Shown here: positions 189-23,616 of the stretch, piece by piece
Numbering within the stretch: the stretch's first letter is position 1
How the letters are laid out: every line of letters begins with the position of its first letter
Origin: Candidatus Omnitrophota bacterium
GTDB lineage: Bacteria > Omnitrophota > Gorgyraeia > Gygaellales > Profunditerraquicolaceae
DNA: 64,000 nt
Assembly: GCA_041650835.1 (NCBI GenBank)
Contig: JBAZKL010000001.1
Span: 171,931 to 235,930 of the forward strand
Reading direction: 5' to 3'
Notes under the pieces: model-generated
What the model saw: the letters and a program-made list of their open reading frames with translations, nothing else
Database searches by the model: none
Told to the model about the DNA's origin: nothing
Made by a program: the position numbers and the translations under genes

Positions 189-2225
189 CTATCTGACCCT
201 CTTTAATAAATCCACGGCTTTCCCGCTCTTGTCAAACCTAAGCACATAGCAGGGAACCTCCCGCGCTATTCTTTCCGCCACAGACAATGTCTTTTCCCAC
301 CAGTCAACAGTAACCAGAGGCTTGACTAAACACTCCAGAATTTTTTTAATTCTTTCTTTCCTGTCTTCCAAAGGTATAAGCCGATTTTCATCCGCTTTCT
401 CCAAGAACATGATCGCTCTTAACGCGGCTGAATTTGGCGATATATCCGGCACATCTCCATGGCTCCAGGTCCCGTAAATCTTAAAACCTTCGGGTTTTCT
501 TCTTATGATCATCCGGTCATCACAGAGTATTTCAGCCTTTCCCTTGAACATGGCAGCCATAGTGGATTTTCCCGCTTCGGAATGGCCGGCAAAAAGCAGG
601 CCTTTACCGTTGAAATTCACCCCGCTGGAATGCAAATAACATCCCTGCCTATCAGCTAAAACGCGCGCGATAAGCATCTGGTCCGAAGGGAACATAGTCA
701 GAGAATGTAAATTCCCCTGTAAGAACAATTCTTCCGTATCATTGTAAATTCTGCCGCGGCTGTGGTCAGCGTTAAATGACGCGACACGATGCAGCCCTTT
801 ATCCTCTGGCGCCGAAGGAATTCCCAAATATATCCACGAACCGTTATTTTTATATATTGCCCAGGGGGGCCTACGGTAAAACTCTTTGCCAAGGTCTTTA
901 TCGGCCAGGTCCGGCAGAAAAAAGTGCTGCCAAATAGAAATAGTATCTTCTCCCGGGCCATCTACTTCAAAAAGCTTGAATTTAGGGTGGAATGTATTAT
1001 TTTTGATCGGCAGATCAGATTCAACCCGCACGGTAATATCAGCGATTTTAAAGTAACGGCGGTGGAGTTTATGCCATTTTTCCCTGAACTTCCGGTTTTC
1101 TTTGGCAACGGAGCAAAGATATTCAACCTTATGGTTAAAATCCCGGGACTCAAGATACCCATAAACCGGGCAGAAACGGCAATCTTTACGCAGATCGCAA
1201 GAGCCGCAATTCTTCTTATATTCTTCTGTAATCTTAACTTTAGCTGCCAAAGAAGGGATAAATTTATCCCAACAATCCTTAAAACTGCCCTTTATTAAAT
1301 TGTAACGAAGATCAGGGTGCTTGATAAAACTGCAGAAGGTCATTTGCCCATAAGGATCAATGTGAAAATCACGCCTTAAATTTATGCAGGAGCTCAATAA
1401 CCGGCCATTTTCACTTATCATACGGCATTCGGGATCTTCCCCGTTCATCCGGTCATCATAAAACAAATCCGGTTTATCCAACTCAACGACTTTTTCAGGC
1501 GGCAGCCTCTGCCGCGTTATTTCTTTATTCCTTTCGGCATCACCGCAGGCAGACAGAAATAACCAGGCAGCGCCTATTCTATAATACTTACTGACGCGCC
1601 GGGACAACTTAACCATATCCTGAAACTGATGGTAATTATCCTTCATCGGGATTATCTGAACTATAAAACCAGCGCCGGCTTCTTTTAAGTATCGCAACCC
1701 ACGCATAGTCGCCTCAAAAGAGCCCGGGGTACGGGTTATATGATCGTGAATTTGAGCGCTTGCCCCGTAAAGCGCGACCATTTTTACCCCTTTTTTCGCC
1801 AGAAGCTTTGCTATTTTAGGAGTGATCAAAGTACCATTGGTATTTATGGAATAAGAATTGAACCTGCGGGTAAGATAATCAAAGATTTCAGGGAAATCCG
1901 GTCGCAGCAAGGGCTCACCGCCGGAGATAGACCACCTGCGGCAGCCCATTCTCCGCGCTTCATTCACAATTTCCTTAATTTGCGCTACGGCAAGTTCTTC
2001 TTTCTTTTGAGGTGAATTTACGGGGACTCTTAACCAACAATGGCGGCAATTATTATTACAACGGTAGGTAAGATCGATTTTGCCTTCTAAGGGCAAACGG
2101 GTAAACTTGTTTACTTTTATTTCTTGTGAATACTCCTGCGCCATAGTTATAGTTATACGCGGTAACCTAAGAAAATCCAATTCAAAAGCAGCCCAAGAAC
2201 CAAAGATCAAAAGAACGACCTGCAT
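189..2225 (-). CDS. Radical SAM/SPASM enzyme fused to a C-terminal HprK-like P-loop kinase domain
   Basis: N-terminal CxxxCxxC (CNNNCRHC) in TYRCNNNCRHCW. Mid-protein SPASM pattern CSFIKHPDLRYNLIKGSFKDCW ... CGSCDLRKDCRFC. C-terminal GKGLLFAGHSEAGKSTMAAMF...ILCDDRMIIRR closely matches the HPr kinase/phosphorylase C-terminal P-loop (LhhG.SG.GKS...haDD). The true start may be the internal Met (MAQEY, ~2144). Confidence 0.7.
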   Translation of the reverse strand: MQVVLLIFGSWAAFELDFLRLPRITITMAQEYSQEIKVNKFTRLPLEGKIDLTYRCNNNCRHCWLRVPVNSPQKKEELAVAQIKEIVNEARRMGCRRWSISGGEPLLRPDFPEIFDYLTRRFNSYSINTNGTLITPKIAKLLAKKGVKMVALYGASAQIHDHITRTPGSFEATMRGLRYLKEAGAGFIVQIIPMKDNYHQFQDMVKLSRRVSKYYRIGAAWLFLSACGDAERNKEITRQRLPPEKVVELDKPDLFYDDRMNGEDPECRMISENGRLLSSCINLRRDFHIDPYGQMTFCSFIKHPDLRYNLIKGSFKDCWDKFIPSLAAKVKITEEYKKNCGSCDLRKDCRFCPVYGYLESRDFNHKVEYLCSVAKENRKFREKWHKLHRRYFKIADITVRVESDLPIKNNTFHPKFKLFEVDGPGEDTISIWQHFFLPDLADKDLGKEFYRRPPWAIYKNNGSWIYLGIPSAPEDKGLHRVASFNADHSRGRIYNDTEELFLQGNLHSLTMFPSDQMLIARVLADRQGCYLHSSGVNFNGKGLLFAGHSEAGKSTMAAMFKGKAEILCDDRMIIRRKPEGFKIYGTWSHGDVPDISPNSAALRAIMFLEKADENRLIPLEDRKERIKKILECLVKPLVTVDWWEKTLSVAERIAREVPCYVLRFDKSGKAVDLLKRVR

Positions 2226-2440
2226 CCATCGTGTATTGAACCGGACCCGCCGATGCTGTATCCTTTACGCGGCCCTCTCCCTCCTGAGAACCCTGCTTTG
2301 TAAATTTAGATTGGAACTCGGGTACGAATATTATGGCAGATTGGTTCTATGCTACAATACAAACTGACAAAAGTCAAAATAATTCAGTTGCGCCGACAGT
2401 ATCCCCTCATAATAACCGCGGGCCCGCATGACGAACAGGC

Positions 2441-3760
2441 TCAATGATCCCATTTCCTTGATACCTTGTTCAACAAGTAACAAAACGAGGCCCAATGCGC
2501 CAGGCTGACCAGCGGATCACGCAAGAAAAACTTGAAATAATTATCGCATTCAACTCTCCGGCGCCTTGAAAAATAAATATCATAATAATGCTTAAGCATT
2601 GCTGAAACCGGGGGCAGCTTTCTGGTTTTCTTACCGGACAACAACTTTTCTTTTAAAAAAGCCTCCCCCCGAAGGAACAGGTAGAAAATAAATATACATA
2701 TATCGCGCGCCGGCCATACGAAAACAACCTCCCCCTTATCGGTTGATACCGGCAAAGCTACCGCCTTATTTTCGAAAAGAGACAGCGAGATCAGCGGGCC
2801 GTTCACCCCTTCCCTTACTTCCGACCAGGTCCCTTCGCTGATACGCACATTAACCTCCATCACTTTGTGCATGCCATCCCGCGCGTCAACTTTAAGCTGA
2901 ACATGGCCATAGCCGATAAATTGCTCACTCGCGAACAGCGAAACGATCTTGTTAAAATACGCAGGAAGGTTTTTCTTTATCAGCAGCAATCCAAAGTTTT
3001 GATGGATGGTCATTTCCGGCCTTTGACAAACCGCGCATGAACCCAGGAACAAAGTTCCATCCCGCCTCATGTAAACACGCGCGTACGCAATGGTATCGCC
3101 GGGGATATACTCCTGCACCACGAACTCATGAGCGCGCGCCTTGTTCTTTTGCCTCCAAGCCTCCCAATCCCCTCTGTCCTTAATAAAGCATATCCCCCGC
3201 GAGGCGCTTGCGAAACGCGGTTTGACCACAGCCACCGGGGAGGTGCTTCCCGTTTCCGGAAAACGCAGTTTATCCGCATCTTCAACAAGAAAGGTTTCCG
3301 GGCACCGAAGCCCTTGCTCCCGCGCCAGCCGTATTATGGTAAACTTATCCGCCATGCGTTTCAATACGGGATAATCGTTAACGGGGATGAAAACACCTTG
3401 TTCCTCGAATACTTTTTTGTATTTTGCCAGAATAAACACTTCCTCATCTCCGGAAGGGTATATAAGATTTACGCGCTCGCGCCGGCAAATATTTAAGATA
3501 TCATCTATGTATTCTTTTTCTGCGGCAACACAAGAACTTTCGTTCAAAGTGGTCACGCATCCGGCAGGTGATTTGCCGGTTTTTATTCTATACGTTTTAG
3601 CTATTAATCGCGAGTGTGAGGAAAACGAGAACACCCCGGGAACTATCCCATTCCCCTTGACGGTAACGATGATCCTCTCACACTGGTCAAAGAGCGCGCG
3701 GATAATGTCATATGACTGCGGCGTGCCCGGATCGGTAATTAACAGCCTCCAACGTTTCAT
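2441..3760 (-). CDS. ATP-grasp domain protein (carboxylate-amine/thiol ligase family)
   Basis: Pre-ATP-grasp N-domain (MKRWRLLITDPG...) and ATP-grasp-like central region (AVVKPRFASASRGICFIKDRGDWEAW...EFVVQEYIPGD). 4-nt overlap with the downstream gene. Confidence 0.5.
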   Translation of the reverse strand: MKRWRLLITDPGTPQSYDIIRALFDQCERIIVTVKGNGIVPGVFSFSSHSRLIAKTYRIKTGKSPAGCVTTLNESSCVAAEKEYIDDILNICRRERVNLIYPSGDEEVFILAKYKKVFEEQGVFIPVNDYPVLKRMADKFTIIRLAREQGLRCPETFLVEDADKLRFPETGSTSPVAVVKPRFASASRGICFIKDRGDWEAWRQKNKARAHEFVVQEYIPGDTIAYARVYMRRDGTLFLGSCAVCQRPEMTIHQNFGLLLIKKNLPAYFNKIVSLFASEQFIGYGHVQLKVDARDGMHKVMEVNVRISEGTWSEVREGVNGPLISLSLFENKAVALPVSTDKGEVVFVWPARDICIFIFYLFLRGEAFLKEKLLSGKKTRKLPPVSAMLKHYYDIYFSRRRRVECDNYFKFFLRDPLVSLAHWASFCYLLNKVSRKWDH

Positions 3761-4791
3761 GGCCGCTTTCCTTCTTTCTTCAACGGCTCACCCGGGAGCT
3801 CACAGAGATAAGCAATGATCCCCGGGAGAACCAACACCCAGTACTGCGAAAGCTGAAATTTGGGCAGGCCGACCAAAAAGAATATCAACCACAGGGAAAA
3901 CCACTTGATCACCGCGCCAAGACCTGCCGCCCCCTGCCGGACCTTTTCGAACAGGTAAAACAAAAAGGTGACACACGCGGACAAATAGCACAGCGTTACC
4001 ACGGCCGCCGCCCGCGCGCCCATGACCGGCAAAAGCAGATAATAAACATTCGGACTGCGAAACATCCAGGGGCTATAGAAATGCGCGGCCACCATGGATC
4101 CGCTCACCCTTGGCCCGAACAGAGCCTGCGTAAATTCCCGCGGGCCGGTAATGAAAAACGGCAAGAAGATCAAAACAATTGTCCCGGTAAAACACCAAAA
4201 ACTCTTTTTATCAACGCGCCAGAAATAAACCGAAGAAATCAACGCGAGAGGAAAATAAAACTGTTTTACCGACACAGCGCATGCCAGCGCGACCGCTGCC
4301 GCCGCAGGCAGCTTATAGCGCTCATGCAACAAAAGCGCAAGGATTATCCCGCCGGCGGCAACAATATCGTTGGATGCCGTAAACCCGGAAGTTATTTCCC
4401 GCGTGAACGGATTGAGCAAAAAAACAGCCGCAAGGAACATTCCCCAGCGCTCATCCCTGGCGCAGGCCAGCAGGCCGAACGCGGTGAACAGCGCGAAAAT
4501 AAAATTCAGCCAGCGGATATCCGCCCAACTCGCCAACAGGCTATAGCCCAATGCTCCTGCGGGTGGATAACTGTAATGCAGTGAATAAGCCGAATCGGCG
4601 GTCTTAATGATAAACGGCGACGAATAAGGATTCATCCCCTTGATTATCTTGAGCGACGCCAAGCGGTTTATTTCGTATATGTCGCTGGTATGGCCGATCG
4701 GAAATTGCCGGATATTTGCGTGAGTCAGTCCGGCGAACACTGCCACGAACGCTATTGCGATAAGCCATTTTACTAAAGCCTGCTCTTTCAC
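3757..4791 (-). CDS. Polytopic integral membrane protein (possible GT-C-like glycosyltransferase or polymerase; function unknown)
   Basis: About 10 predicted TM helices across the whole length with no soluble domain. Operonic between the ATP-grasp gene and a hypothetical gene. Confidence 0.35.
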   Translation of the reverse strand: MKEQALVKWLIAIAFVAVFAGLTHANIRQFPIGHTSDIYEINRLASLKIIKGMNPYSSPFIIKTADSAYSLHYSYPPAGALGYSLLASWADIRWLNFIFALFTAFGLLACARDERWGMFLAAVFLLNPFTREITSGFTASNDIVAAGGIILALLLHERYKLPAAAAVALACAVSVKQFYFPLALISSVYFWRVDKKSFWCFTGTIVLIFLPFFITGPREFTQALFGPRVSGSMVAAHFYSPWMFRSPNVYYLLLPVMGARAAAVVTLCYLSACVTFLFYLFEKVRQGAAGLGAVIKWFSLWLIFFLVGLPKFQLSQYWVLVLPGIIAYLCELPGEPLKKEGKRP

Positions 4792-4792
4792 G

Positions 4793-6040
4793 TCACTCCT
4801 TTACCTGGTAAATAAAATAAAACGGCCGATTATAACGGATGAGGGCCGCGCCATTCTCTGTCCTGCTGCGGTTTACCAGTAACGCAACATACATGCGCTG
4901 CGGGAACAGATCATAGGCAGAAAGATCGAACGCTCCCTGGCGGTTCGAGGGGATCCGGGCAAGGACCGGCCGGTCCGGCAGAAGAAAGTCTTTCCCGGCG
5001 GAATATAACTCAAGGGCGGTTTCTTCTCCTTCATCCATTCGCCAATCACGATCCATGACCGATTCGCCTCCGTCATAGGCCAAGGTATGCCCAAGCGGCG
5101 CGCGCGCGGGCGGAACAGGAATATTCACCACCATCTCCCCGCTGCCGTGAGACGCTTCCCAACTGATCCGGACATCCGGGATATTTACCGCCGGGATACT
5201 TTCCAAAAGAAGCGTTCGGGAAAAATTCTGTTCGCGTTCATCCCAATCCAGCGTAAAGGGTTGCGAGAAAAACGCCCCTTGCTTCACGCTCATTTTCTTT
5301 AGCTGCCGCAGCGTCACCGCTTCAAGGCGCAAGAAAACACTTTTGCCCGCCTCCAAAAATACCGCATGAACATCCGGACCGAAAGCATCATATGTCCGGG
5401 GGTGATATTCGAACATCCTGCTGGTCGCGCGGTCGCCGAGATACTTCGAAAACGCGGTGATCCTGAACACGCAGGAAGGGACCTGTTCAGGCACGAGAAA
5501 CCGCGGCCCGCACAGGTACGGGCTGGAATATATTATTTCCCCTTCCCGGTTAAAAAAATCCACCGTGTAGAATAACGCCGTCGCGCCGCCAGGCCATTCC
5601 AATAAACCACCCCGCTGTTCCACTTGTCCCACCGCGGAAACGAACAATCTGCGGGAACGCTCAACTGCCACTTCTTTCTTAAAAACAACCCCGTCCTCAA
5701 AGCAGACCTCCACATACAAATGCCGGGGCAGCGAATCATACGCGAGGCTCCCCTGAAACAGCGTTGTCCGCGGGATGTAACCGGAGCGCTCGCCGGTAAG
5801 CGGACCTATAACCTGTCCGGCTTCGTTCTTCAGCACTGCCCGCGTAATGCCGAGCTTATACGCCGGCTTCACCAGTACCACGAGGCGCTTGCCGGCATCA
5901 GCAAATACATGCAGCGCAGGCTTAACCAATATGATCCTTGGAGAAGGATCAAAAAAATACAAACGGATCCCTATAAAAAAAATGAAAAGGAATATAGCTG
6001 TATATTTAAGCGCAGGCTTCATTTTAATCATGCCGAGCAA
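4793..6040 (-). CDS. Membrane-anchored hypothetical protein (single N-terminal TM, large extracytoplasmic domain)
   Basis: N-terminal hydrophobic helix (AIFLFIFFIGIRLYFF), no recognisable motifs, tightly packed in the operon. Confidence 0.4.
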   Translation of the reverse strand: MLGMIKMKPALKYTAIFLFIFFIGIRLYFFDPSPRIILVKPALHVFADAGKRLVVLVKPAYKLGITRAVLKNEAGQVIGPLTGERSGYIPRTTLFQGSLAYDSLPRHLYVEVCFEDGVVFKKEVAVERSRRLFVSAVGQVEQRGGLLEWPGGATALFYTVDFFNREGEIIYSSPYLCGPRFLVPEQVPSCVFRITAFSKYLGDRATSRMFEYHPRTYDAFGPDVHAVFLEAGKSVFLRLEAVTLRQLKKMSVKQGAFFSQPFTLDWDEREQNFSRTLLLESIPAVNIPDVRISWEASHGSGEMVVNIPVPPARAPLGHTLAYDGGESVMDRDWRMDEGEETALELYSAGKDFLLPDRPVLARIPSNRQGAFDLSAYDLFPQRMYVALLVNRSRTENGAALIRYNRPFYFIYQVKE

Positions 6041-7470
6041 GCCGTCCTATAAACAAATTTTAATTTCTCACCGAGAGGAAAACGCGATATTCTCAAGGCC
6101 AAAACATATATTACGCCGGCAACGGACATCTTCAGCAAAAAATAGCCCATCGTTACCGGAAAGACCGCATTCATCCCGAGCAGGCACAGGACCATGACGG
6201 TCGAAGCGGCAATCACCGGCCATACATTCCGCAGATATATCTTTGCGGACACGCCGATCAGGCGGTTGGTTGCCGTAATGATCACCGGAAAATAGATCAG
6301 CTCCGCGAGCGTGACCGCCGCGGCTATACCGGCAATGCCGTAACGCCGGCCGATGAGAATTGCGCTGCAACTGACCAGGCAATAAAAGACCCCCCAGCGC
6401 CAGGTAAGGTCCGGCCTTCCCTTGGCATAAAAGATCGCCCTGATTATACCTCTGCGCAGCGTTTGCAGCAAGCCGTTCACGCAGAGTATCCGCAGCGCGT
6501 CTGCCGCGTTAAGCCATTTCCCGCCGAACAAGAACAAGATAACGTCTGTTGCGTTGACACAAACCGCCAGATGCAAGGGAACGCTCAATAAAGCCATGCC
6601 CTGGATGACTTTTAAATAAAACTCACCGAACAACGCGTTTTCATCGCGCATCCTGCTCAACGCCGGAAATAATACCCGGTAAAACACCGGCGCGGCCTGG
6701 TAGTAAAAATAATTGGAAACCGAATAGGCAAAATAATAGTAACCCATCGCCGCAACACCCAGGAATTTACTGATGATCAGAAAATCAAGATTAGCGCCGA
6801 TATAATTAAGGATCTCCGCGCCGAAAACATTTTTCCCGAAGCGGAGCATTTCTTTCAGCCTCCCGGCTTCAAAGCCAAGGGCCGGTTTCCACTCACTCGC
6901 CCGCCAGCTTAATAAACAGAGTACCGCGCTCTTGAGTACCAGCGCCCACACCAGGCTCCAAACGTTGCGAGTAAGAAACGCGATGCCCCCCCCGGCTACT
7001 CCATAGACGATCACCCCTGCCACCTGGGGGATCACGAGCCGTTTATAAGCCAGCTTTCTGCTTATGACCGCTTCGAAAATAGAGGTCAACGAATCGAAAA
7101 CAAAAGTGACGGAAAGCACCCTTAAGATCGCAGTCAACGGAGGATTGTGGAAGAAGCCCGCGATAAACGGGGCAACGATCACGGTGATCAAAGCCGCTAC
7201 CGTCGCGCTCGCCAGGTAAGAAGAAAAAGCGGTAACAAGATGCCGCTCATCCGTATCATCATTCTGAACCAGCGCTTCCGGTAAACCGAATCCCTGCAGC
7301 AGGACCTGGATACATTTAATATAGATATACGCGGTCGTGATCGTCCCGAAATGCTCCGGCAGCAATAACCGGGCAAGGATAATTGCCGAGACAAACTGTA
7401 TCACCTGGGAAATGATTTGCCCCAGGCTTACCCAGGTGAATCCCTGGGCGACTTTTTGCCGCATATTCAC
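6028..7470 (-). CDS. wzx: Wzx-type oligosaccharide flippase (MOP/polysaccharide biosynthesis protein family)
   Basis: 480 aa, ~12-14 TM helices. N-terminus MNMRQKVAQGFTWVSLGQIISQVIQFVSAIILARLL is typical of Wzx/RfbX. Confidence 0.75.
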   Translation of the reverse strand: MNMRQKVAQGFTWVSLGQIISQVIQFVSAIILARLLLPEHFGTITTAYIYIKCIQVLLQGFGLPEALVQNDDTDERHLVTAFSSYLASATVAALITVIVAPFIAGFFHNPPLTAILRVLSVTFVFDSLTSIFEAVISRKLAYKRLVIPQVAGVIVYGVAGGGIAFLTRNVWSLVWALVLKSAVLCLLSWRASEWKPALGFEAGRLKEMLRFGKNVFGAEILNYIGANLDFLIISKFLGVAAMGYYYFAYSVSNYFYYQAAPVFYRVLFPALSRMRDENALFGEFYLKVIQGMALLSVPLHLAVCVNATDVILFLFGGKWLNAADALRILCVNGLLQTLRRGIIRAIFYAKGRPDLTWRWGVFYCLVSCSAILIGRRYGIAGIAAAVTLAELIYFPVIITATNRLIGVSAKIYLRNVWPVIAASTVMVLCLLGMNAVFPVTMGYFLLKMSVAGVIYVLALRISRFPLGEKLKFVYRTACSA

Positions 7471-12112: not shown

Positions 12113-12113
12113 A

Positions 12114-13400: not shown

Positions 13401-13412
13401 CGCCGGATATAC

Positions 13413-15437: not shown

Positions 15438-17076
15438 ACGTATCCCTATTCAACGGCACTTCAAGGACATTTGTTACTTGCGCGGACAAAGCCTTACGCA
15501 AGGCCTTTCGAAATTCATCTTCGCCGGATACCCGGCACCCCACAGCGCCATTGGCCTGTGCCAAGCGCACAAAATCAACCTTCCCAAAATCAGTGATCGC
15601 AGGATTATGTCCCCCTAATCCCTTTTTTTGATAATGGCGGATAAGCCCGACTGAATTGTCGCAAAAAACGACACAAACCACCGGCAGCTTGTTTCGCACG
15701 CTTGTTTCCAATTCCGGGCTGCTCAAATGAAATCCCGCGTCCCCGCACACCGCGACGACGTTTCTTTCCGGACAAGCCCTTTTCGCCCCAAGAGCTGCCG
15801 GCAGGCCAAAACCCATGCTTCCCAAACCGTTCGAACAAAAGAAAGACTTCGGCTTTTTTGCTTCATAGTAAAGCGACACGTATTGTTTGTGTAAACCGAC
15901 ATCGGATATCAGGATATCCTGCGCTGAAAGTTCCTCATTAAGGACATTGACGATCGCAAATGGCGTAAGGCCGGAACGCTTCCCAAAAGTATCTTCCCGG
16001 TATTCCAACAGCTCTTTTTTAAGTTTTGCTGTTATTTTCAGGTCCCGCGGGGCCTCCCAGGATTTTCCGGTCAACCTCTCAGAGAACGTGCGATACGCCA
16101 TGCTGATATGCGCGTCCACGGGAATAAAGGCAAAGCTATCTTCCACGATCGAATTGATCGCGCACACTTTTTTCTCGCGGCCGAAGCGCCATAATTCCGG
16201 GGTTATCCCTTCAACCATATCGAAACCCGCAAGCAGGATACAATCGGTATCTTCGAATATTTTCTTTAATGTCCCGGGGATAAAACAATCCAGATACTTA
16301 CTGACGGTCCCCAGATAATACGGTGATTCTGGGGGGATCACTCCTTTTCCGCCATAAGTGGTAACAACCGGTATCCGCAAACGCCGCAACAGCTTTTGCA
16401 GCTGCGTTACTTCTGCCGCGCTCCTCACCGCGCTGCCTACGATACAGATCGGATCTTTGCTTTGCCTGATCAGCGTCAACAGATCCTTAATACCGGAAAA
16501 GCCGGCGGGGCGGGTATATACGCGGCTGTCTTTTCCTGCTAGAGCGATACCACCATCAGGCAACGGCCGGAACCCGGTTTTTGCCCTGAAAATATCCAGG
16601 GGAATACTTAAAAAACACGGGCCCGGGATCCCCGATTCAGCGATCGTCGCGGCCCTGAGAATTTCAAGCTGCAGCTCGGAAACAGAGCTTACTTCTTTAG
16701 CGTATTTCGTGATCGGACGCATCAAAGCAACCTGATCCACATACTGATGCGTGGAGGGATGGATCGACAACGATTCCACCTGAGCGGAAATTGCCAGCAT
16801 CGGGGCACGGTCTAAATACGCCGATGCGATACCGGTTGCCAAATTAGTTGCTCCCGGTCCGAACGTCGAATAACAGACTCCGATTTTACCGGTCAACCTT
16901 CCTTGTATATCAGCCATGAATGCCGCCGAGCGCTCATCGCGCGTGAGCATGAACTCCACGCCTTTAACCTCGTTAAACGCGATGGCCTCGGCTTCCCTGC
17001 CCACAATACCGAAGATATGCTTTGTTCCGCGGCTTTTGAGCGTCCGCAATAAGATGTGCGCGCCGGTAAGCATCAT
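15427..17076 (-). CDS. Thiamine-pyrophosphate enzyme, acetolactate-synthase-large-subunit-like (possible YerE-like sugar-branching enzyme)
   Basis: N-terminal TPP-Pyr domain GVCYSTFGPGATNLATGIASAYLDRAPMLAI, central and C-terminal TPP-binding domains (GLGSMGFGLPAALGA), 549 aa. Confidence 0.8.
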   Translation of the reverse strand: MMLTGAHILLRTLKSRGTKHIFGIVGREAEAIAFNEVKGVEFMLTRDERSAAFMADIQGRLTGKIGVCYSTFGPGATNLATGIASAYLDRAPMLAISAQVESLSIHPSTHQYVDQVALMRPITKYAKEVSSVSELQLEILRAATIAESGIPGPCFLSIPLDIFRAKTGFRPLPDGGIALAGKDSRVYTRPAGFSGIKDLLTLIRQSKDPICIVGSAVRSAAEVTQLQKLLRRLRIPVVTTYGGKGVIPPESPYYLGTVSKYLDCFIPGTLKKIFEDTDCILLAGFDMVEGITPELWRFGREKKVCAINSIVEDSFAFIPVDAHISMAYRTFSERLTGKSWEAPRDLKITAKLKKELLEYREDTFGKRSGLTPFAIVNVLNEELSAQDILISDVGLHKQYVSLYYEAKKPKSFFCSNGLGSMGFGLPAALGAKRACPERNVVAVCGDAGFHLSSPELETSVRNKLPVVCVVFCDNSVGLIRHYQKKGLGGHNPAITDFGKVDFVRLAQANGAVGCRVSGEDEFRKALRKALSAQVTNVLEVPLNRDTYVC

Positions 17077-17082
17077 ATACAG

Positions 17083-18009
17083 TTATTCCTGTAAGCGATT
17101 TTGATGTACAATTTTCCCCCCCAGCCACTCGCCCCTGACGATCTGGCCGAAATACCGGAAAAACCCGGGCAGATATGCCGGCGACCGCGCGCAGCGGAAA
17201 AAAACCGGAATAAGCCGCGGGCATAATAGGTTTAAAAAACTGAAACGGAATAAGAGCTTCCCCCACAAGCCAAAAACGGTATATCCTCCCTTGAGAAATC
17301 CCAACGCGTACCTGCGCTGATCCCGAACAAAACACGCCCAACCGGGATCGCCGCTCCATTTATGATGGATGACCCTGGCGGCAGGAGCGAACATGATAAC
17401 TTTTCCCCCGCGGACCAATTCGTCATTAAACAAACTGTCTTCAAACCCCAGCCCCTTATATGCTTCCGGAAATCCATGGCCCTCTATTTCTTTCGCCCTA
17501 TACGCGCTGTTGCAACCCGGAATGTTTTTTATCCTGCGCACCGCGCCCGCGGGAAACCAGGAAGAAAACTCAATGATATATGAAGCCCGGGATAACGCCG
17601 AGCCGCCCGCGTTCACGACACTGCCGCCGACGGCTGCCGCCTGCGGATAGCTGCGAAACACCTCCATAATTATCGAGAGCCAGTTAGCTTCCGGCCGGCA
17701 ATCATCATCCAGGAACACGATGATATCACCGCGGGCCATTTCCCTGCCCCGGTTACGCGCCGCGGCAACTCCACGATTCTCCGGGTTACGCACGGCCTGA
17801 AGCCGCTTTCCGCAGCGGCGCAACAGACTTTCTACCTCAGCGGCCGTAGCATCATCGGAGGCGTCATCCACGATAATGACCTCAAACCCATCCTGCGGAT
17901 AGTCAAGCCGAAGCACGCTCTCCACGCATTCGCGCAAACTCCCGGCGCGATTATACGTAGGGATCACGATGCTTACGTACGGCATACTCCGTTTAAGTCC
18001 TGCGCGCAT
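17083..18009 (-). CDS. Family 2 glycosyltransferase
   Basis: VSIVIPTYNRAGSLRECVESVLRL...IIVDDASDD. The track ORF runs to 18249 but overlaps the aminotransferase gene, so start placed at the internal Met (MRAGLK, 18009; alternative 17985). Confidence 0.7.
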   Translation of the reverse strand: MRAGLKRSMPYVSIVIPTYNRAGSLRECVESVLRLDYPQDGFEVIIVDDASDDATAAEVESLLRRCGKRLQAVRNPENRGVAAARNRGREMARGDIIVFLDDDCRPEANWLSIIMEVFRSYPQAAAVGGSVVNAGGSALSRASYIIEFSSWFPAGAVRRIKNIPGCNSAYRAKEIEGHGFPEAYKGLGFEDSLFNDELVRGGKVIMFAPAARVIHHKWSGDPGWACFVRDQRRYALGFLKGGYTVFGLWGKLLFRFSFLNLLCPRLIPVFFRCARSPAYLPGFFRYFGQIVRGEWLGGKIVHQNRLQE

Positions 18010-19243
18010 AATAGTGCCTGATTTCACGAGCGACTCTTTCAGCGTCTTTTTCCGGTAGCGTATGGGAGATCGGCAGCGAAATAATTTCTCCGCACCCCTG
18101 TTCGCAAGACGGAAAATCTCCCTCCCGGTACCCAAGATGACGGCATTCATTACGCAAATGAAGCGGTATCTTACAAAAAACCCTGGACTGGATCCCCTTA
18201 CCCGAAAGATGCTCCAGGAGCTCATCCCGCCTTTGGACCCGCAGCACATAGTTCCAATATACCTGCTCCCGGGTTTTCTCCGTCTGAATAACTGTGATTT
18301 GAGAAATACCTTCTAACAACGAATCATAGCATTGCGCGATCGTCCTGCGCTTGGCGACGATCTCGCGAAAATGAAGCAGCTTTACTTTTAAGAACGGGAT
18401 ATGCGCCGGGTCCAGGCAGCATGGAGAGCGATGGCTTTTCAAGATCCCGGAGCTATTGTGGACCGGCTGCCGCATTTCTCTGGCTTTTTGAGCAAGCAGC
18501 GGGTCGGATGTTACCAACATACCGCCGTCACCTAAGCCGCTGATAAATTTTGACGGATGAAAGCTAAAACACCCGGCGTTGCCGAATGAACCGACCTTGG
18601 CGCCGTTTATTGCCGCGCCCTGCGCCTGGCAGGCATCTTCGACCAGCGCTAAACGGTATTTCCGGGCAAGCGCGACGATCGCTTCGAGCGCGCACGGCCT
18701 GCCATAGGCGTGTACCGGCAGGAGCGCTTTTGTGCGCGGATTGATCTTTTCTTCGATCTTGTCCGGATCGATACTAAAATCATCGCCCGTGTCCACAAAA
18801 ACGGGGACCGCGCCGGCATCCATGATCGCCAGCACCGTGGCAATATAGGTGTGCGGGGTGGTGATCACTTCATCACCCGGGCCGATACCCAGGCCCAGTA
18901 AGCTGTAAGCCAGCGCCGCGGTGCCGGAAGCAAGCCCGACCGCCTCGGATACCCCGCAAAAATCAGCGTAAAGACGCTCGAATTCGCGCGTATAGAGCTC
19001 AATATCAAAATCGTTGCGCGCCCGTAATAGTTTATTCAATTCCCCGGTTATCTCTTCCAGATAAAGAGCGTTCTCCCCGGCATAATCGGAATAGGGAATA
19101 TCGTAGGTCGTCTGGACAAAAGAAACCGCCTTTAAGGTGATATCCCGCAGGAGACGCGCCCTCCGGAACCTGCCGCCACGCAGGCAGTTCCGAATGACCC
19201 GCCACGCGCTTCTTGCGGCACCCAATCCTGATATCATTTCCAC
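17993..19243 (-). CDS. DegT/DnrJ/EryC1/StrS-family PLP-dependent sugar aminotransferase
   Basis: SFHPSKFISGLGDGGMLVTSD active-site Lys region and the DxxQAxGA motif. Confidence 0.85.
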   Translation of the reverse strand: MEMISGLGAARSAWRVIRNCLRGGRFRRARLLRDITLKAVSFVQTTYDIPYSDYAGENALYLEEITGELNKLLRARNDFDIELYTREFERLYADFCGVSEAVGLASGTAALAYSLLGLGIGPGDEVITTPHTYIATVLAIMDAGAVPVFVDTGDDFSIDPDKIEEKINPRTKALLPVHAYGRPCALEAIVALARKYRLALVEDACQAQGAAINGAKVGSFGNAGCFSFHPSKFISGLGDGGMLVTSDPLLAQKAREMRQPVHNSSGILKSHRSPCCLDPAHIPFLKVKLLHFREIVAKRRTIAQCYDSLLEGISQITVIQTEKTREQVYWNYVLRVQRRDELLEHLSGKGIQSRVFCKIPLHLRNECRHLGYREGDFPSCEQGCGEIISLPISHTLPEKDAERVAREIRHYYARRT

Positions 19244-19248
19244 CTCTT

Positions 19249-20727
19249 CTATTGCGCGTATCCGATACTTTTCAATCTTTCTTTCATTTCACGGCTCAAG
19301 TCCGGCGCAGCTGCGGATGATGAGGGTAGGCGCCGGTAAGATCTTTTGTCCCGCTCAAACCCGTCCAATACTTTTTTAAGCTCCAGGAAGATCGCCTGCT
19401 GTGGCGCGGCCAATACGGGATCATTGAGCAGGTTATGAGCCTCCCCGGGGTCTTTGATCAGATCATACAATTCATAATCATTTTTGTAATAATCCCCCAC
19501 CTTAGAACGGAACCCCTGGCTTGCGTTTATCGCTTCCCGGCCAACATGGATCAATTTCCATTCCCGAGTACGCACGCTCAAAAGGCCGTCCTCCACATTA
19601 CTGAAGGCGTAGGAATAACTGCGGACGCTTTCTTCCGGAACGCTCTCCCACATACTTTTTCCTTCCATCTGCCGGGAATAACCGCGTATGCCGGCCATCT
19701 CCATTATCGTCGGCATCAGGTCAAGCAATCGCAGCTGACGGTCCGCAGGCGGATGATTCTTTAAACGGCGAGGGTCCCGGATGATCATCGGGACCTTAAG
19801 CGCGGTATCATAAAGCGTGAGCCCGTGCACAAAATAATCTTCATGCTCCCCCAATCCTTCTCCATGGTCGGACATGATTATAACGATCGTCTTACGGTAC
19901 AGGCCCAGCCGCTTGAGCTCAGCGACCAGTCGCCCCACCTGATCATCAGCCACGCGGATCTTTCCGTCATATTTTGCGCGATAGTAATCCACGTCGTCAA
20001 TGTTGTTTTCCACGACATATGTCGGAATACCGCCAAAATTTCCCGACTCCCCCGGCAAGCCGAGATCGATGATCGGCCTGCGCTCACCGGTTTTGAACAG
20101 CCCCTCGCGGTAAAATTCATCGCTATAGGGCAATGATGGATGATACGGCCCGTGGGGGGCCATGTAATACAGCCAGAGGAAAAAACTTTCATTTTTATGG
20201 TCATCGATCCATTCAAGCGCCCTGTCAGTCGCTCTCGCCGGATAAAGGTCTTCGAGCTCCATATACGAATCAAAACCCCGGGTGATCCCTTTCATTCTTC
20301 TTATGCTGTAGGGATGATTATTGATAAACGCGGTATGATATCCGTTATGCCTCAGCACGCGCGGAAAAGATATGATATCCGGATCGAAATACAAGACGTG
20401 CGTGCGGCCTACGACCCGGCGATGCACAAACGGGTAACGGGAGGTCAAGAACGACGGGACTGAACTCAGCGTATCCGGCCCCTGCGCGATCACCGGCTCA
20501 AACACCACTCCTTCTCTCGCCAGAAGGTCGATATTCGGGGATGTATTCCGGGAATAACCGTAACAGCCCAGATGGTCCGGCCGAAGCGCATCGAGGGTGA
20601 TCAAAACGATATTCGGTTTTTCTCCCGGGGTAGCGCGATAGCGCCAAAATAATAAGCCGGAGATAACCACCCCGCAGGCCAAAAAGAGCAACGCCGTTCT
20701 TTTACGTTTATCAGATATCATGACCAC
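19249..20727 (-). CDS. Sulfatase-like hydrolase/transferase (alkaline phosphatase superfamily), membrane-anchored
   Basis: N-terminal TM, then PNIVLITLDALRPDHLGCYG...TPNIDLLAREGVVFE. The formylglycine motif position reads LSSVPSF (S-x-P-x-F rather than C/S-x-P-x-R). Confidence 0.6.
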   Translation of the reverse strand: MVMISDKRKRTALLFLACGVVISGLLFWRYRATPGEKPNIVLITLDALRPDHLGCYGYSRNTSPNIDLLAREGVVFEPVIAQGPDTLSSVPSFLTSRYPFVHRRVVGRTHVLYFDPDIISFPRVLRHNGYHTAFINNHPYSIRRMKGITRGFDSYMELEDLYPARATDRALEWIDDHKNESFFLWLYYMAPHGPYHPSLPYSDEFYREGLFKTGERRPIIDLGLPGESGNFGGIPTYVVENNIDDVDYYRAKYDGKIRVADDQVGRLVAELKRLGLYRKTIVIIMSDHGEGLGEHEDYFVHGLTLYDTALKVPMIIRDPRRLKNHPPADRQLRLLDLMPTIMEMAGIRGYSRQMEGKSMWESVPEESVRSYSYAFSNVEDGLLSVRTREWKLIHVGREAINASQGFRSKVGDYYKNDYELYDLIKDPGEAHNLLNDPVLAAPQQAIFLELKKVLDGFERDKRSYRRLPSSSAAAPDLSREMKERLKSIGYAQ

Positions 20728-20749
20728 CCATTTACTTTTTTCGAATACG

Positions 20750-21817
20750 TCACAGCGCTTCTTGCGCGTAGTCCCTCTTTCGGCCGAAGTCGGAAGATTG
20801 ACACGATGCCAACACGCTTTTCCACCGCAGCGCCTCGAATAAGAACCCGGCGCCGTAGGCTAGATGTATCGTAGGAAAAAGCACAAGAAATACCCAGAAC
20901 AAGGAGCGATGTTGCGTTTCAATCGCTTTTTTCGCTGCATTAAAGAGACAAACCGTCAGATAAGCGTATCCCGGCAACAAATACCCCGGCCAGTGCCCTA
21001 CCAGGAGCGCGCCAAGATAAACCAGGAACATCGCCGGGATGCAATAAAGCAGATTATCCACGCGGAAACGGCATTTTGCAGCCTGGCATCTTCCCCTGCC
21101 GTAGGTAAAGATCTGCCGGCAGAATTCGGTGTAATTCTTGCGCCTTTCATGATAAACGGCCAATCCCGGAATATATACCGCCCTATAACCAGCGCACATT
21201 AATTCCTGAAGCAATAAGTTTTCTTCGGCGCAAATGATCGAATCGTTGAAGCAGATGTTGCTTTTCTCGAAAACCCGCATCCGGAACGCGAGGTTGCAAA
21301 GGATAAGCATCCGTTCATCGGCAGCAGACGGTTCCCCGCAGCGAGTATACCGCCGGCTCATCCATAACGTCCCGAAAAATGAACCCAGCACCGCGCCCTG
21401 GGCGACCTGGAACAGGTTACTTCCCGGCGGGGTCAGATTCGGCCCGCCGATTATATCCGCCCCAGGATAATTCTCCATACTTTCCAGCATCACCGAGCAT
21501 GTGTCGCCGGAAACAATCACGTCGTCATCCAGAAAATAAACCAATTCCGTCCGCACATGCCTCAGCAGGATATTACGCGCCTGGCCTTTTCTCGCTTTTT
21601 TTGCCTTCAGGAATTCAATGTTTTCGTATCGCGCGTGGTAGCGGGTGAGGATACTTTCAGTCGAGGGGCTCTCTCCGTTCAGGAGGATGAGTACGGCAAT
21701 TTCCCTGAAGCGTCGGCAATGCACGAGGCTTTCGAGAAACCGCTCCAAACTACCGTCCCGATCGCACGTTACTGTTACAATGGTCGCTTTCCTCATTTTT
21801 ATTATGCCGGCCGGCAA
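20750..21817 (-). CDS. Family 2 glycosyltransferase with C-terminal TM helices
   Basis: TIVTVTCDRDGSLERFLESL, YFLDDDVIV (DxD), hydrophobic C-terminus. Confidence 0.7.
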   Translation of the reverse strand: MPAGIIKMRKATIVTVTCDRDGSLERFLESLVHCRRFREIAVLILLNGESPSTESILTRYHARYENIEFLKAKKARKGQARNILLRHVRTELVYFLDDDVIVSGDTCSVMLESMENYPGADIIGGPNLTPPGSNLFQVAQGAVLGSFFGTLWMSRRYTRCGEPSAADERMLILCNLAFRMRVFEKSNICFNDSIICAEENLLLQELMCAGYRAVYIPGLAVYHERRKNYTEFCRQIFTYGRGRCQAAKCRFRVDNLLYCIPAMFLVYLGALLVGHWPGYLLPGYAYLTVCLFNAAKKAIETQHRSLFWVFLVLFPTIHLAYGAGFLFEALRWKSVLASCQSSDFGRKRDYAQEAL

Positions 21818-21972
21818 TCAGTATTTCCCAATTTGAGTTGTGGAGACGGAAATTTATACCGTACCCCACAGATACGATCATTAACAGGATTATCTTATCA
21901 TCTATCATACTGGACAACAAGACAAAAATCCGAGGAAAGCGTCTTGTTGAGCGCTGTCGCGAGAGGTAAGCC

Positions 21973-23616
21973 TTAACGGCATTGGAACAATTCAACTTCA
22001 AGGCCTCCGGCCTTACGGGCGTCTATCCTGGTAAACATATCCGCGAGCCGCGCGCGCACCTGTACCGCGTTTTCTTTAGGCTTCCACCCCTCATCAACGA
22101 TAGAGGATGCCAGCCATATCCTTTTCCACTCTCCCGGCTCAATGCCCAGGGCCTGAACCGTTGCTCCGGGCTTTGATTTTACGATATAAAGCGAAGTATC
22201 GCTTTCTTCAAAAGGACAAACAATCTCCCGCTGCTTCAACAACCAGATGATCACCCTGCTATAACGGGGAACAAAGAGCAGATACCGGCGGAAATTCCCT
22301 TCCGCCGGGGGTGGGGAGGGGAAATATCTTTTAAGAAGCACCTCGGATTCCTCGCAGGTAGCGGCAACAATATCGCCGTCCTGAAAATTATTCTTAATAT
22401 ATTCGATCGCCGGGGCATAATTCCTTTTGCTGCGCGTTCCCAGGTGATACTGAAAATATTTCTGTGACGTGGGCATAGTACCGGCGTAATGATCGGCTAA
22501 GGAGCTCACCAGCATCATCGCGGCCGCCGCCATTAAAGTGATCCGCAGAACACGGGAATTGGCCTGCGTCAATGCCAGCGCGACGAATATATACAACGAA
22601 AAGGCTACCGGCATCAATGCGCGGTCAAGGTAGACGGGGACCAGGCAATACGATACGGCATACGCGGCGGCGACCGGAACAATAAGAAAAGCGCTCAACA
22701 GCGCCAAGGCTTTCCGGTCGCTTCTCAGCGCAAACATCCCGTAGAGCGCCAGGGCGATAACCGCCGCCCCATAAACAAGATAGCGCTGTGGTGAATTATT
22801 ATATCCAATGATAACGTTGGTCAAGGTGATCAACGGCGCCTGCGGCGCAGGAAGGTTGATCCACCAAAAACAGTGTAGTGCCGAGGATATATCCCGCCCC
22901 ACAACAACGGCCATCAAAAACGCGGGAACAGCTATGCAGAAAGTCGATACTACCCAGGCCCCGGCAGCCGTTCGGCCCTGCTTACTCCACAGCGATACTA
23001 CTGAAGCCGCGATCAGGAATATGAACATATAATTCGTGTAAAACGCGGCGATCCCTGATAACGTGCAAACAATCCAATGAACATTTCTGCGGGTACGCAG
23101 TGCCCGGACATAATAATACGCCCAGAGCAGGCTTAAGAGCGTGCTCAAGGCGTACCCGCGCGCTTCCTGCGCGTACCAGACCTGCATCGGGCTCAACAGG
23201 AATAACGCCATTGCCGCCAGGCTTACCCTCCGGTCCAGGAAGAGCCGGGTAAATTTATACATCAGCGCGCCGGCAGCCACATTGAGTATCACCGAAAGGA
23301 CGCGTAAAGCATACGCGCTATCACCGAAAAGAAAAGTCCAGGGAAAGATCAGAAGGTAATACAGCGGCGAGTGCCGGTCGGCCGCGAAAGAGCGCGCCAT
23401 AAACTCCGGGATGGACTCCGCTGCCCAGCCTGCCATGGCAACAAGATTTTGATAGCTCCATCCGAAGGTAATAACTTCATCATACCAAAGATCGTACTTA
23501 CCGAGCTGATATAAACGCAGCGCTATAGCCGCCGCAAGCAGAATAAGAAACCACAACGCCTCTACCCTTGACGGCAAACTCCGTATCTTCCGGAATATAT
23601 CCTTAATTGTATCCAA
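21973..23616 (-). CDS. GT-C fold membrane glycosyltransferase (GT39/PMT_2-like)
   Basis: About 11 TM helices, first-loop DLWYDEVITFGW (DE motif), C-terminal ~170-aa soluble domain. Confidence 0.55.
   Translation of the reverse strand: MDTIKDIFRKIRSLPSRVEALWFLILLAAAIALRLYQLGKYDLWYDEVITFGWSYQNLVAMAGWAAESIPEFMARSFAADRHSPLYYLLIFPWTFLFGDSAYALRVLSVILNVAAGALMYKFTRLFLDRRVSLAAMALFLLSPMQVWYAQEARGYALSTLLSLLWAYYYVRALRTRRNVHWIVCTLSGIAAFYTNYMFIFLIAASVVSLWSKQGRTAAGAWVVSTFCIAVPAFLMAVVVGRDISSALHCFWWINLPAPQAPLITLTNVIIGYNNSPQRYLVYGAAVIALALYGMFALRSDRKALALLSAFLIVPVAAAYAVSYCLVPVYLDRALMPVAFSLYIFVALALTQANSRVLRITLMAAAAMMLVSSLADHYAGTMPTSQKYFQYHLGTRSKRNYAPAIEYIKNNFQDGDIVAATCEESEVLLKRYFPSPPPAEGNFRRYLLFVPRYSRVIIWLLKQREIVCPFEESDTSLYIVKSKPGATVQALGIEPGEWKRIWLASSIVDEGWKPKENAVQVRARLADMFTRIDARKAGGLEVELFQCR

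Follow-up and report, generated by a model that had tools for sequence, protein, structure and literature searches.

The locus described here raises the question of what several radical S-adenosylmethionine (radical SAM, rSAM) enzymes are doing among genes for glycan assembly, and of whether all of these genes form a single unit. It lies in a stretch of 64,000 nucleotides, referred to below as the window, from a Candidatus Omnitrophota bacterium; all coordinates are window positions, L001 denotes the window's own contig, and L002-L040 are other loci recovered in scans of genomes and metagenomes. Proteins identical to those encoded here are present at NCBI (MFA5117373.1 and MFA5117375.1) in a metagenome-assembled genome (MAG) of a Candidatus Omnitrophota bacterium. 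Since Mla, AsmA-like, BON and TolC-like/outer-membrane protein genes are present within the window, a diderm envelope is indicated for this organism.

An earlier interpretation that was based upon the sequence alone (the sequence-only reading) considered this region to be one unit of ~23 kb with five rSAM enzymes. Its inventory of genes, viz. three GT2 glycosyltransferases, a Wzx flippase, a DegT aminotransferase, a thiamine pyrophosphate (TPP)-dependent enzyme, a sulfatase-like protein, an ATP-grasp ligase and five rSAM open reading frames (ORFs), was recovered in full by profile hidden Markov models (HMMs), with every gene at the position where it had been placed. The single unit was not: the glycan island consists of 17 genes extending over ~21 kb of the minus strand (2441-23616), four of which encode rSAM enzymes, and the fifth rSAM gene (189-2225) is part of a separate cassette of the type involved in making peptides that are synthesized on ribosomes and modified after translation (RiPPs). 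The locus is an unusual form of a lipid-linked glycan assembly cluster, not a new type of system, and it holds two rare rSAM subfamilies, one of which has a novel N-terminal SPASM-like arrangement.

Extent and boundaries of the glycan island

Every real-looking ORF of at least 150 aa in the window is on the minus strand, and the shared orientation of these genes is therefore no evidence that they form a single unit. The cumulative GC skew declines steadily over positions 1-64000, which is consistent with one replichore and a strong gene-strand bias. The downstream end of the island was placed at the ATP-grasp gene (2441) because synteny, composition and a gap with a promoter-like site agree upon this point. 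The closest relative of the island is found on a 37-kb JGI contig, where the rSAM proteins are 74–77% identical to those of the island (the 77% relative). The genes in this relative are arranged as in the island, in the order sulfatase, DegT, GT2, TPP enzyme, rSAM, GT2, GT-C, three rSAMs, Wzx, a 412-aa protein, a 354-aa protein and ATP-grasp, and the ATP-grasp gene is then followed by DUF2284, Smr and methyltransferase genes and not by a counterpart of the 189-2225 gene. The GC content of the island genes ranges from 0.47 to 0.55 (mean 0.516) and that of their third codon positions (GC3) from 0.54 to 0.63, whereas the corresponding values for the 189-2225 gene are 0.444 and 0.468. The genes between 21817 and 2441 overlap or are tightly spaced, and a gap of 215 bp, which contains a promoter-like site (TTGACT-17-TAGCAT, 2377-2349), separates position 2441 from the 189-2225 gene.

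At the upstream edge, the GC content is 0.527 in the first gene of the island (21973-23616) versus 0.458 in the adjoining ABC-2 gene. The latter belongs to a complete efflux operon located directly upstream (23704-30446, minus strand), which encodes a TetR regulator, a TolC-like outer-membrane factor, an HlyD adaptor, two ABC ATPases and two ABC-2 permeases (RbbA/YbhFSR-like); the composition of this operon differs from that of the island (GC of its genes 0.45–0.50) and it is probably unrelated to it. For the flanks as a whole the GC content is 0.44–0.47, compared with 0.516 for the island.

Radical SAM enzymes of the island

The CxxxCxxC motif is present in all five rSAM proteins (189-2225, 7520-8506, 8519-9577, 9574-10695 and 14367-15437), each of which scored above the Pfam Radical_SAM cut-off of 29.5 bits. 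At least three of them had been credited earlier with SPASM or twitch auxiliary-cluster domains, and evidence for such a domain was found in all five. The protein encoded by 7520-8506 (Radical_SAM 45 bits) is of the twitch or short-SPASM type and belongs to a family with a weak SPASM match and three invariant C-terminal Cys residues. In the protein encoded by 14367-15437 (Radical_SAM 51.5 bits) the SPASM domain is C-terminal (26.7 bits against a cut-off of 21.5), and the 189-2225 product aligns over its full length to SPASM families.

The remaining two rSAM proteins, 'a' (9574-10695, 41 bits) and its paralogue 'b' (8519-9577, 57 bits), which are 37% identical, have a different organization, and the start of the 'b' gene overlaps the stop of the gene upstream. 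Both proteins contain an N-terminal extension of ~125 residues with invariant cysteines (C29, C51, C92 and C98), which is followed by the motif CNNNCxFC. In distant relatives, which align from the start of the family profile, a Pfam SPASM domain is found N-terminal to the Radical_SAM domain. When the N-terminal domains of six members of the family were searched in isolation, they had no Pfam match, and the domain of one member gave a single weak match in NCBIfam, which was to a SPASM region (E 0.042). Because distant relatives carry SPASM at this place and the weak match is also to a SPASM region, the extension is best read, from these sequence comparisons, as an auxiliary-cluster domain that resembles SPASM/twitch domains but is unusually placed, and not as a peptide-recognition element; these proteins will be referred to as N-SPASM rSAMs. 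The model for rSAM proteins with an N-terminal twitch domain (NF033640, N_Twi_rSAM; cut-off 170 bits) was matched by only 7520-8506 (58.6 bits, in the core region only) and 14367-15437 (28 bits). It was not among the best 25 NCBIfam families of either N-SPASM paralogue, and the N-terminal domains alone did not match it.

None of the five rSAM proteins reached the cut-off of any named NCBIfam family, and the scores for MoaA, AhbD/NirJ, anSME, PqqE and BlsE were all 3- to 10-fold under the respective thresholds. The maximum scores were 72 bits for MoaA (cut-offs 231–325), 119 bits for AhbD (500) and 68 bits for PqqE (381). An assignment of these genes to well-known housekeeping families, which would have been fatal to the sequence-only reading, was hence rejected. 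For 14367-15437, the best NCBIfam matches were AhbD (83 bits against 500) and NirJ2, the best match of nearly full length was GeoRSP, and its matches in the PDB sequences, to SkfB and BlsE, were both weak. This protein has no orthologue in L005-L010 and it is accessory, lying outside the conserved core that is described below.

Structural comparisons were made for two of these proteins. The AlphaFold model of the twitch rSAM (7520-8506) is confident (pLDDT 87.6), and its closest solved fold is that of BlsE, a sugar-nucleoside decarboxylase, followed by SkfB, SuiB, ChlB, anSME, MoaA, viperin and DesII; the same mixture was obtained with Foldseek. For N-SPASM rSAM 'a', the AF2 model (pLDDT 77.8) gave fold matches that are non-discriminating, and a search of the PDB sequences gave no match. 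The top Foldseek matches of both proteins include SkfB, SuiB and CteB. Structure prediction, from which a distinction between sugar and peptide substrates had been hoped for, thus identified BlsE as the nearest fold for one enzyme, and the matches are so mixed that fold comparison alone does not decide between the two. Two adjacent genes for ParA/NUBPL-type P-loop ATPases with inserted 4Fe-4S ferredoxin domains and a sixth rSAM gene, of the MiaB/UPF0004 methylthiotransferase type, are also present in the window (43424-45119 and 34062-35150, minus strand); neither is linked to the island.

A rare conserved core in related loci

The N-SPASM rSAMs are extremely rare. A word-seeded search of 5.8 billion proteins identified nine homologues, and when 1.84 billion cluster representatives were searched exhaustively with a HMMER profile, 18 clusters reached E<=1e-30, of which 17 also reached E<=1e-53. 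Among 185,579 species genomes only three N-SPASM loci were found (two in Omnitrophota MAGs and one in a genome labelled Planctomycetales), a metagenome scan added six further loci, and a tblastn search of 72,556 plasmids gave no match. The family of the twitch rSAM is similarly small, with ~15 proteins at E<=1e-53 (38–76% identity) in the word-seeded search of the same 5.8 billion proteins. The unusual density of rSAM genes that had been pointed out for this region is genuine, with four of them in the island.

Examination of gene neighbourhoods recovered a rare core module in about a dozen loci (L005-L010, L023, L024, L027, L028 and two JGI contigs). As determined by tblastn, this core consists of one to three N-SPASM rSAMs, which are its signature, together with the twitch rSAM (39–42% identity), DegT (48–53%), the ATP-grasp ligase (28–55%) and the three GT2 glycosyltransferases, GT2-a, GT2-b and GT2-c (38–51%). 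A GT-C glycosyltransferase of the PMT_2 family lies beside the core in L006 and L007, and a Wzx flippase in L009 (53%). Seven other proteins, viz. the TPP enzyme, the C-terminal-SPASM rSAM, the sulfatase-fold protein, GT-C 2 and three proteins without a family, are found only in the island and its closest relative. In the distant loci (L005, L006-L008 and the JGI contig of P0124), the core genes are interleaved with those for an NMT1/SsuA-type ABC importer, a Peptidase_U32-family protein, a B12-binding rSAM, an Alginate_exp porin and a CapK_C protein. Peptidase_U32 is a family of O2-independent hydroxylases, and these extra genes hint at further anaerobic tailoring and at export across the outer membrane.

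All of the syntenic loci are uncharacterised metagenomic contigs or MAGs, and no close synteny was found with any characterised O-antigen or capsule locus or with any other characterised locus. The suggestion that this is a glycan-assembly island with no characterised counterpart thus held against the synteny search that could have overturned it. Weak matches to the gene pattern in L012-L022 and L029-L038 proved to be generic rSAM arrays without homologues of the island genes and were ruled out. A survey of the literature on SynChlorMet, on combinations of rSAM, O-antigen and ATP-grasp genes, and on homologues of carboxyethylarginine synthase (CEAS) in polysaccharide loci found nothing relevant. 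In a preprint on Omnitrophota genomes, modules of rSAM and glycosyltransferase domains are mentioned only within giant proteins. The window itself also contains a giant gene (47526-56315, minus strand), whose 2,929-aa product combines GH94 supersandwich and catalytic domains (E 1e-171 and 5e-122) with a Glycoamylase domain and a GT2-type region. Cyclic beta-1,2-glucan synthases (Cgs/NdvB) have this architecture, and the gene is therefore an ordinary giant gene that is not specific for the Omnitrophota.

Glycosyltransferases, flippase and other proteins of the island

The genes other than those for rSAM enzymes mostly encode proteins that are expected for glycan assembly. The first gene of the island (21973-23616) encodes GT-C 1, a PMT_2 protein of the ArnT-PMT type (547 aa, ~9 transmembrane (TM) helices; PMT_2 36.9 bits against a cut-off of 26.1), which has a full-length 25% match to the PMT_2 gene adjoining DegT in L006 and L007 and no match in a search of the PDB sequences. 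A second PMT_2 protein, GT-C 2 (10676-12157; 493 aa as called in L001), scored 33.0 bits against the same cut-off. Two or three GT-C proteins had been expected here; these two stand, and the third candidate, a polytopic membrane protein of 344 aa with ~8–9 TM helices (3757-4791), did not match PMT_2. This protein, to which a 354-aa gene corresponds in the 77% relative, has only a sub-threshold match to DUF6239, no match in the PDB sequences and no similarity to the two PMT_2 proteins. It could be a GT-C-like transferase, or a divergent Wzy or ligase.

The three GT2 proteins are GT2-a (20750-21817; Glycos_transf_2 59 bits, Glyco_trans_2_3 33 bits), which ends in two TM helices and has orthologues at 38–40% identity in L005, L010 and L024; GT2-b (17083-18009; Glycos_transf_2 116 bits), with orthologues at 47–51% in L006-L009 and L023; and GT2-c (13413-14336; Glycos_transf_2 78 bits), with one C-terminal TM helix and orthologues at 39–46% in L005-L009, L023 and L028. 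C-terminal TM helices are thus present in two of the three. The GT2-b ORF is open to 18249, but its probable start is at ~18009, and its orthologue in the 77% relative is 316 aa long. In a comparison with PDB sequences, the GT2 proteins were closest to chondroitin synthase (58 bits) and PglI (51 bits), with lower scores for DPMS (38), ArnC (27) and GtrB (22).

GT2-c is followed by a gene for a 428-aa protein with an N-terminal hydrophobic leader (12114-13400), which has no match in Pfam or NCBIfam. These two ORFs are in one reading frame (12114-14336), being separated by a TGA and four codons, and in the 77% relative a single GT2 gene of 742 aa occupies the place of both. In view of the shared frame and the single gene in the relative, the 428-aa protein probably works together with GT2-c. 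The split itself could be natural, could be bridged by read-through, or could be an assembly error. Another protein without a family match is encoded by 4793-6040 (415 aa; 412 aa in the 77% relative); it has one N-terminal TM anchor, the remainder being probably periplasmic, and it is not similar to the 428-aa protein.

The flippase gene (6028-7470; Polysacc_synt_3 E 6e-72) encodes a Wzx/MOP protein that scored 250 bits with the NCBIfam MOP flippase model (cut-off 273), 191 bits with TuaB and 171 bits with an O-glycosylation flippase model; its orthologue in L009 is 53% identical. No match to Wzy_C, Wzz/GNVR, Poly_export, Bac_transf or Glycos_transf_4/MraY-type models was detected in the 50 window ORFs that were scanned with HMMs. 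The absence of Wzy, Wzz and Wza noted in the sequence-only reading is therefore borne out for HMM matches across the window; for Wzy it holds at the level of HMMs only, as 3757-4791 could be a divergent Wzy.

The sugar aminotransferase of the DegT/DnrJ/EryC1 family (17993-19243; Pfam E 2e-87) carries the Lys motif SFHPSK and is part of the conserved core, with orthologues at 48–53% in L005-L008, L010, L023 and L024. It is under the cut-off of all NCBIfam equivalogs, the best of which were PseC, WecE and LegC. The last gene of the island and likewise a core member is that for the ATP-grasp ligase (2441-3760), a carbamoyl-phosphate-synthase-like protein with a PylC-like N domain (31.5 bits against 27), which scored 83 bits with PRK12767 in NCBIfam and matched 2pn1 in the PDB. 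Full-length orthologues of this ligase are present in all related loci that have sufficient flanking sequence.

Two further enzymes provide clues to the chemistry. The TPP-dependent enzyme (15427-17076) contains all three Pfam TPP_enzyme domains and is under all NCBIfam cut-offs. It had been described earlier as like acetolactate synthase (ALS), and its membership in the ALS superfamily is upheld; however, its best solved relative is CEAS (1upa, E 3e-98, 333 bits), compared with 254 bits for catabolic ALS. This similarity in sequence hints that the enzyme may add a three-carbon unit through a C-N or C-C bond, rather than forming acetolactate. The sulfatase-fold protein (19249-20727; Pfam Sulfatase E 5e-46), which has one N-terminal TM helix, belongs to the alkaline-phosphatase superfamily. 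When it is aligned to the arylsulfatase 6hhm, the residues T-L-S-S-V are found in place of C-A-P-S-R (C-x-P-x-R), with Thr at the position of the Cys that is converted to formylglycine. As the formylglycine motif is absent, this protein is not a formylglycine sulfatase and no anaerobic sulfatase-maturating enzyme (anSME) is needed for it. A Thr nucleophile is typical of the phosphotransferases and phosphodiesterases of this superfamily. A pairing of anSME and sulfatase, to which the sequence-only reading had alluded, was accordingly rejected, and the sole anSME (TIGR03942) match shown had 27 bits against a cut-off of 349.

The neighbouring rSAM-ScmC cassette

The gene 189-2225 (minus strand) encodes a fusion of an rSAM/SPASM protein (Radical_SAM 91 bits) with an HPr-kinase-like P-loop domain of the ScmC type (Pfam PF27840). 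Its C-terminal 289 residues matched ScmC (TIGR04249, 36.5 bits), HprK_rel_B (31 bits) and HPr(Ser) kinase (20 bits), all under cut-off. The protein has more than 2,400 homologues, and the 120 best listed are 64–74% identical over their full length, with nearly all of the named ones from Omnitrophota. It is the first gene of a cassette that runs past window position 1 (L001:12201-22022) and that contains genes for a TPR protein, an rSAM, PqqD, two YcaO-TPR proteins and a 59-aa precursor (L001:20184-20363). In L002, L039 and L040 the cassette begins with NTP_transf_5 and one or two small ORFs, after which come rSAM-ScmC, a second rSAM, PqqD, a third rSAM and an ABC exporter; in L003, where the contig ends after rSAM-ScmC, its upstream part and rSAM-ScmC are seen. 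The precursors of the cassette form a family in which the leader KKKW-x-KPKL-x-VL-x-RG-x-PEE precedes a Cys-rich core and the C-terminal residue is Ser. It has been reported that homologues of HPr kinase phosphorylate the C-terminal Ser of lasso-peptide precursors, and that an associated nucleotidyltransferase adds hexoses to the phosphate (PMC8498205). In the light of this precedent, a peptide substrate is the natural reading for the 189-2225 protein. This gene thus belongs to a separate RiPP-type cassette that is conserved across the Omnitrophota, and not to the island.

The cassette resembles the SynChlorMet (Scm) system and the HPr-kinase tailoring of lasso peptides in having an rSAM/SPASM protein with a ScmC/HprK-like P-loop, a second rSAM, PqqD and precursors that end in Ser, and also, in other genomes, in the presence of NTP_transf_5 and an ABC exporter. 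It differs from both in that rSAM and ScmC are fused, that two YcaO-TPR proteins are present in L001, and that genes for a lasso cyclase or protease are lacking. The scores with the NCBIfam Scm models are all under cut-off (ScmC 36.5/125, ScmF 93/400, ScmE 72–81/400, ScmD 24.5/100), and by this measure of sequence the 189-2225 protein is a relative of the SynChlorMet family and not an equivalog member of it. The cassette may be more novel than the glycan island itself. In L002 (1-1990) and L003 (1-171), Radical_SAM-SPASM-GT4 fusion proteins of 787–816 aa are encoded beside Wzy_C and glycosyltransferase genes, which suggests that coupling of rSAM and glycosyltransferase domains is recurrent in the Omnitrophota.

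Proposed function of the island and alternative explanations

We consider it moderately probable that the island is an envelope-glycan locus, in which a sugar is tailored anaerobically, loaded on a carrier lipid, flipped by Wzx and transferred by GT-C enzymes. From the observed domain assignments, boundaries and conserved synteny of the core, we infer a possible order of steps, together with their chemistry, substrate and acceptor, as follows. A nucleotide- or carrier-linked sugar in the cytoplasm would be modified without oxygen by the twitch rSAM (7520-8506) and the two N-SPASM rSAMs (8519-10695), in reactions that might be of the radical oxidation, deoxygenation, decarboxylation or epimerisation type. 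DegT could then install an amino group, in keeping with the pairing of rSAM and DegT enzymes that is the established logic of BtrN/BtrS and DesI/DesII, and the ATP-grasp ligase may form an amide with an amino acid or a carboxylate. In this genome and its closest relative, the CEAS-like TPP enzyme and the C-terminal-SPASM rSAM would introduce a C-N or C-C substituent that is specific to the lineage. It is proposed that the three GT2 enzymes, of which two are anchored in the membrane, attach the sugar(s) to a polyprenyl-phosphate carrier or elongate them there, after which the lipid-linked glycan would be flipped by Wzx. At the periplasmic face, the two PMT_2 GT-Cs, and perhaps the 344-aa membrane protein, would transfer the glycan to lipopolysaccharide, another glycan or a protein, and the membrane-anchored alkaline-phosphatase-superfamily enzyme with its Thr nucleophile probably adds or removes a phospho-substituent.

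A number of points weigh against this proposal. Every chemical step in it rests on analogy, the activities, substrates and products of the components all being uncharacterised. The island contains no initiating phosphoglycosyltransferase, nucleotidyltransferase or 4,6-dehydratase from which a starting sugar and a lipid linkage could be deduced. The GT2 enzymes are generic, and DPMS, ArnC and GtrB scored lower with them than did chondroitin synthase and PglI, so that their role with polyprenyl phosphate is a proposal. In fold, the peptide maturases SkfB, SuiB and CteB and also anSME are nearly as close to the island's rSAMs as are the sugar enzymes. Lastly, GT-C was found in only two of the flanked related loci and Wzx only in L009 and the 77% relative, and the link between tailoring and delivery by GT-C is hence weaker than the links among the tailoring genes.

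The resemblance in fold to peptide maturases invites the alternative that the substrate is a ribosomal peptide or a secreted protein, possibly the product of the ScmC cassette, and that the rSAMs, the ATP-grasp ligase and the GT2/PMT_2 enzymes serve to modify and glycosylate it. SPASM and twitch rSAMs are best known from RiPP maturation, ATP-grasp and GT2 enzymes also occur in RiPP pathways, and GT-Cs of the PMT family O-glycosylate proteins. The ScmC cassette, moreover, lies directly downstream of the island here and is located among Wzy_C, GT4, PMT_2, Poly_export and GNVR genes in four other Omnitrophota loci, and its usual partner NTP_transf_5 is of the family by which hexoses are attached to lasso peptides after their phosphorylation (PMC8498205). 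However, no PqqD/RRE domain, precursor-like ORF or peptide ABC exporter was found in the island (proteins and gaps) or in the ~12 related loci, and what the core rSAMs carry at their N-terminus is a SPASM-like extension and not an RRE (RiPP recognition element). The two systems also occur independently, the core without the ScmC cassette in the 77% relative, L005-L010 and L023, and the cassette without the core module in L002, L003, L039 and L040, and here they are set apart by composition and by the promoter-like gap. A sugar is favoured over a peptide because DegT, Wzx, GT2 and GT-C are glycan enzymes and because no component of a peptide pathway is present in any of the loci. We regard a peptide- or protein-directed system as distinctly unlikely, and the hybrid glycan-peptide product that had been entertained in the sequence-only reading is likewise disfavoured by these observations.

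The glycan enzymes would also be accommodated by a locus for O-antigen or exopolysaccharide of the ordinary Wzx/Wzy-dependent kind, with the 344-aa protein as a divergent Wzy, with the initiating transferase, the chain-length regulator and the ligase encoded elsewhere, and with the rSAMs as tailoring accessories only. The scores of the flippase with the MOP, TuaB and O-glycosylation models (250, 191 and 171 bits) are consistent with this, as is the number of GT2 genes, three, which is as in repeat-unit assembly. Wzy proteins are known to escape HMMs, and a protein with ~8–9 TM helices is encoded two genes downstream of Wzx, with the 415-aa gene (4793-6040) between them. Against it stand the lack of any match to the Wzy_C, Wzz/GNVR, Poly_export, Bac_transf and MraY-type models in the 64-kb window, the presence of two bona fide PMT_2 GT-Cs, which are non-standard in Wzy-dependent loci, and the occurrence of the tailoring core without Wzx in most of the related loci; an ordinary locus of this kind thus appears unlikely. 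The least probable explanation, in our estimation, is a diffusible glycosylated small molecule similar to an aminoglycoside or nucleoside, in which the twitch rSAM and DegT would act like BtrN/BtrS, the ATP-grasp and CEAS-like enzymes as in butirosin and clavulanate chemistry, and the MOP protein as an exporter. The B12-rSAM, the Peptidase_U32-family protein and the ABC importer of related loci make up a mix like that of secondary metabolism, but a small soluble product is hard to square with up to three GT2s and as many polytopic membrane proteins of the GT-C type that have partners in the periplasm, PMT_2 genes and an Alginate_exp-type outer-membrane porin are found in related loci, and no scaffold-forming enzyme (cyclitol synthase, NRPS or PKS) is present.

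In a more far-reaching form of the proposed envelope-glycan function, which we put forward as a speculation that is rather unlikely to be correct as a whole, the module would encode a hitherto undescribed route, independent of oxygen, to modified amino-sugars of a new class, which GT-C enzymes place upon the envelope of ultra-small Omnitrophota, the sugar being N- or C-alkylated here by the CEAS-like enzyme. In a still bolder version, the Cys-rich peptide of the ScmC cassette would carry the glycan on its C-terminal phospho-Ser, as a glycan-RiPP conjugate. To our knowledge, the sugar chemistry of rSAM enzymes has been described almost entirely from antibiotic pathways. If such chemistry forms the core of an envelope glycan in strictly anaerobic, uncultured bacteria, it would be extended to the biology of the cell surface. 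The locus offers a defined set of genes, viz. two new rSAM subfamilies, DegT and ATP-grasp, for finding anaerobic sugar modifications, and an architecture as unusual as that with a SPASM-like domain at the N-terminus could throw light on the function of auxiliary clusters. The locus is of limited practical value, as the organism is uncultured and uncharacterised glycan loci are common in metagenomes.

Comparison with known systems

Among known systems, the Wzx/Wzy loci resemble the island in having genes for Wzx, several GT2s and a sugar aminotransferase grouped together on a single strand. The island differs from them in having no detectable Wzy, Wzz/Wzc, Wza or initiating phosphoglycosyltransferase, and in possessing GT-Cs and four rSAMs instead. 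With the Arn and Gtr systems it shares a DegT aminotransferase, membrane-associated GT2s, a flippase step and a GT-C of the ArnT/PMT type that acts at the periplasmic face. However, ArnA and ArnD are absent from the island, its flippase is Wzx and not ArnE/F or GtrA, its GT2s are not specifically similar to ArnC or GtrB, and its four rSAMs, ATP-grasp ligase and TPP enzyme have no counterpart in those systems.

The TPP enzyme (15427-17076) resembles CEAS, of the clavulanate pathway, and the sugar-branching TPP enzyme YerE in being a three-domain member of the ALS superfamily, with CEAS as its best solved relative, and the example of YerE indicates that ALS-like TPP enzymes can modify nucleotide sugars. 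In contrast to the setting of CEAS, genes for arginine or clavam biosynthesis are lacking in the island. Since the TPP gene is confined to this genome and its closest relative, its function is accessory and not part of the core. The sequence identity of the island's enzymes to BtrN/BtrS, DesI/DesII and BlsE, the systems upon which the proposed sugar chemistry is modelled, is only 15–18%, and the BlsE model gave 16–49 bits against a cut-off of 400. The island is further distinguished from these systems by its setting, which is that of a GT-C/Wzx glycan locus and not of an antibiotic cluster, and by its new type of rSAM with an N-terminal SPASM-like domain.

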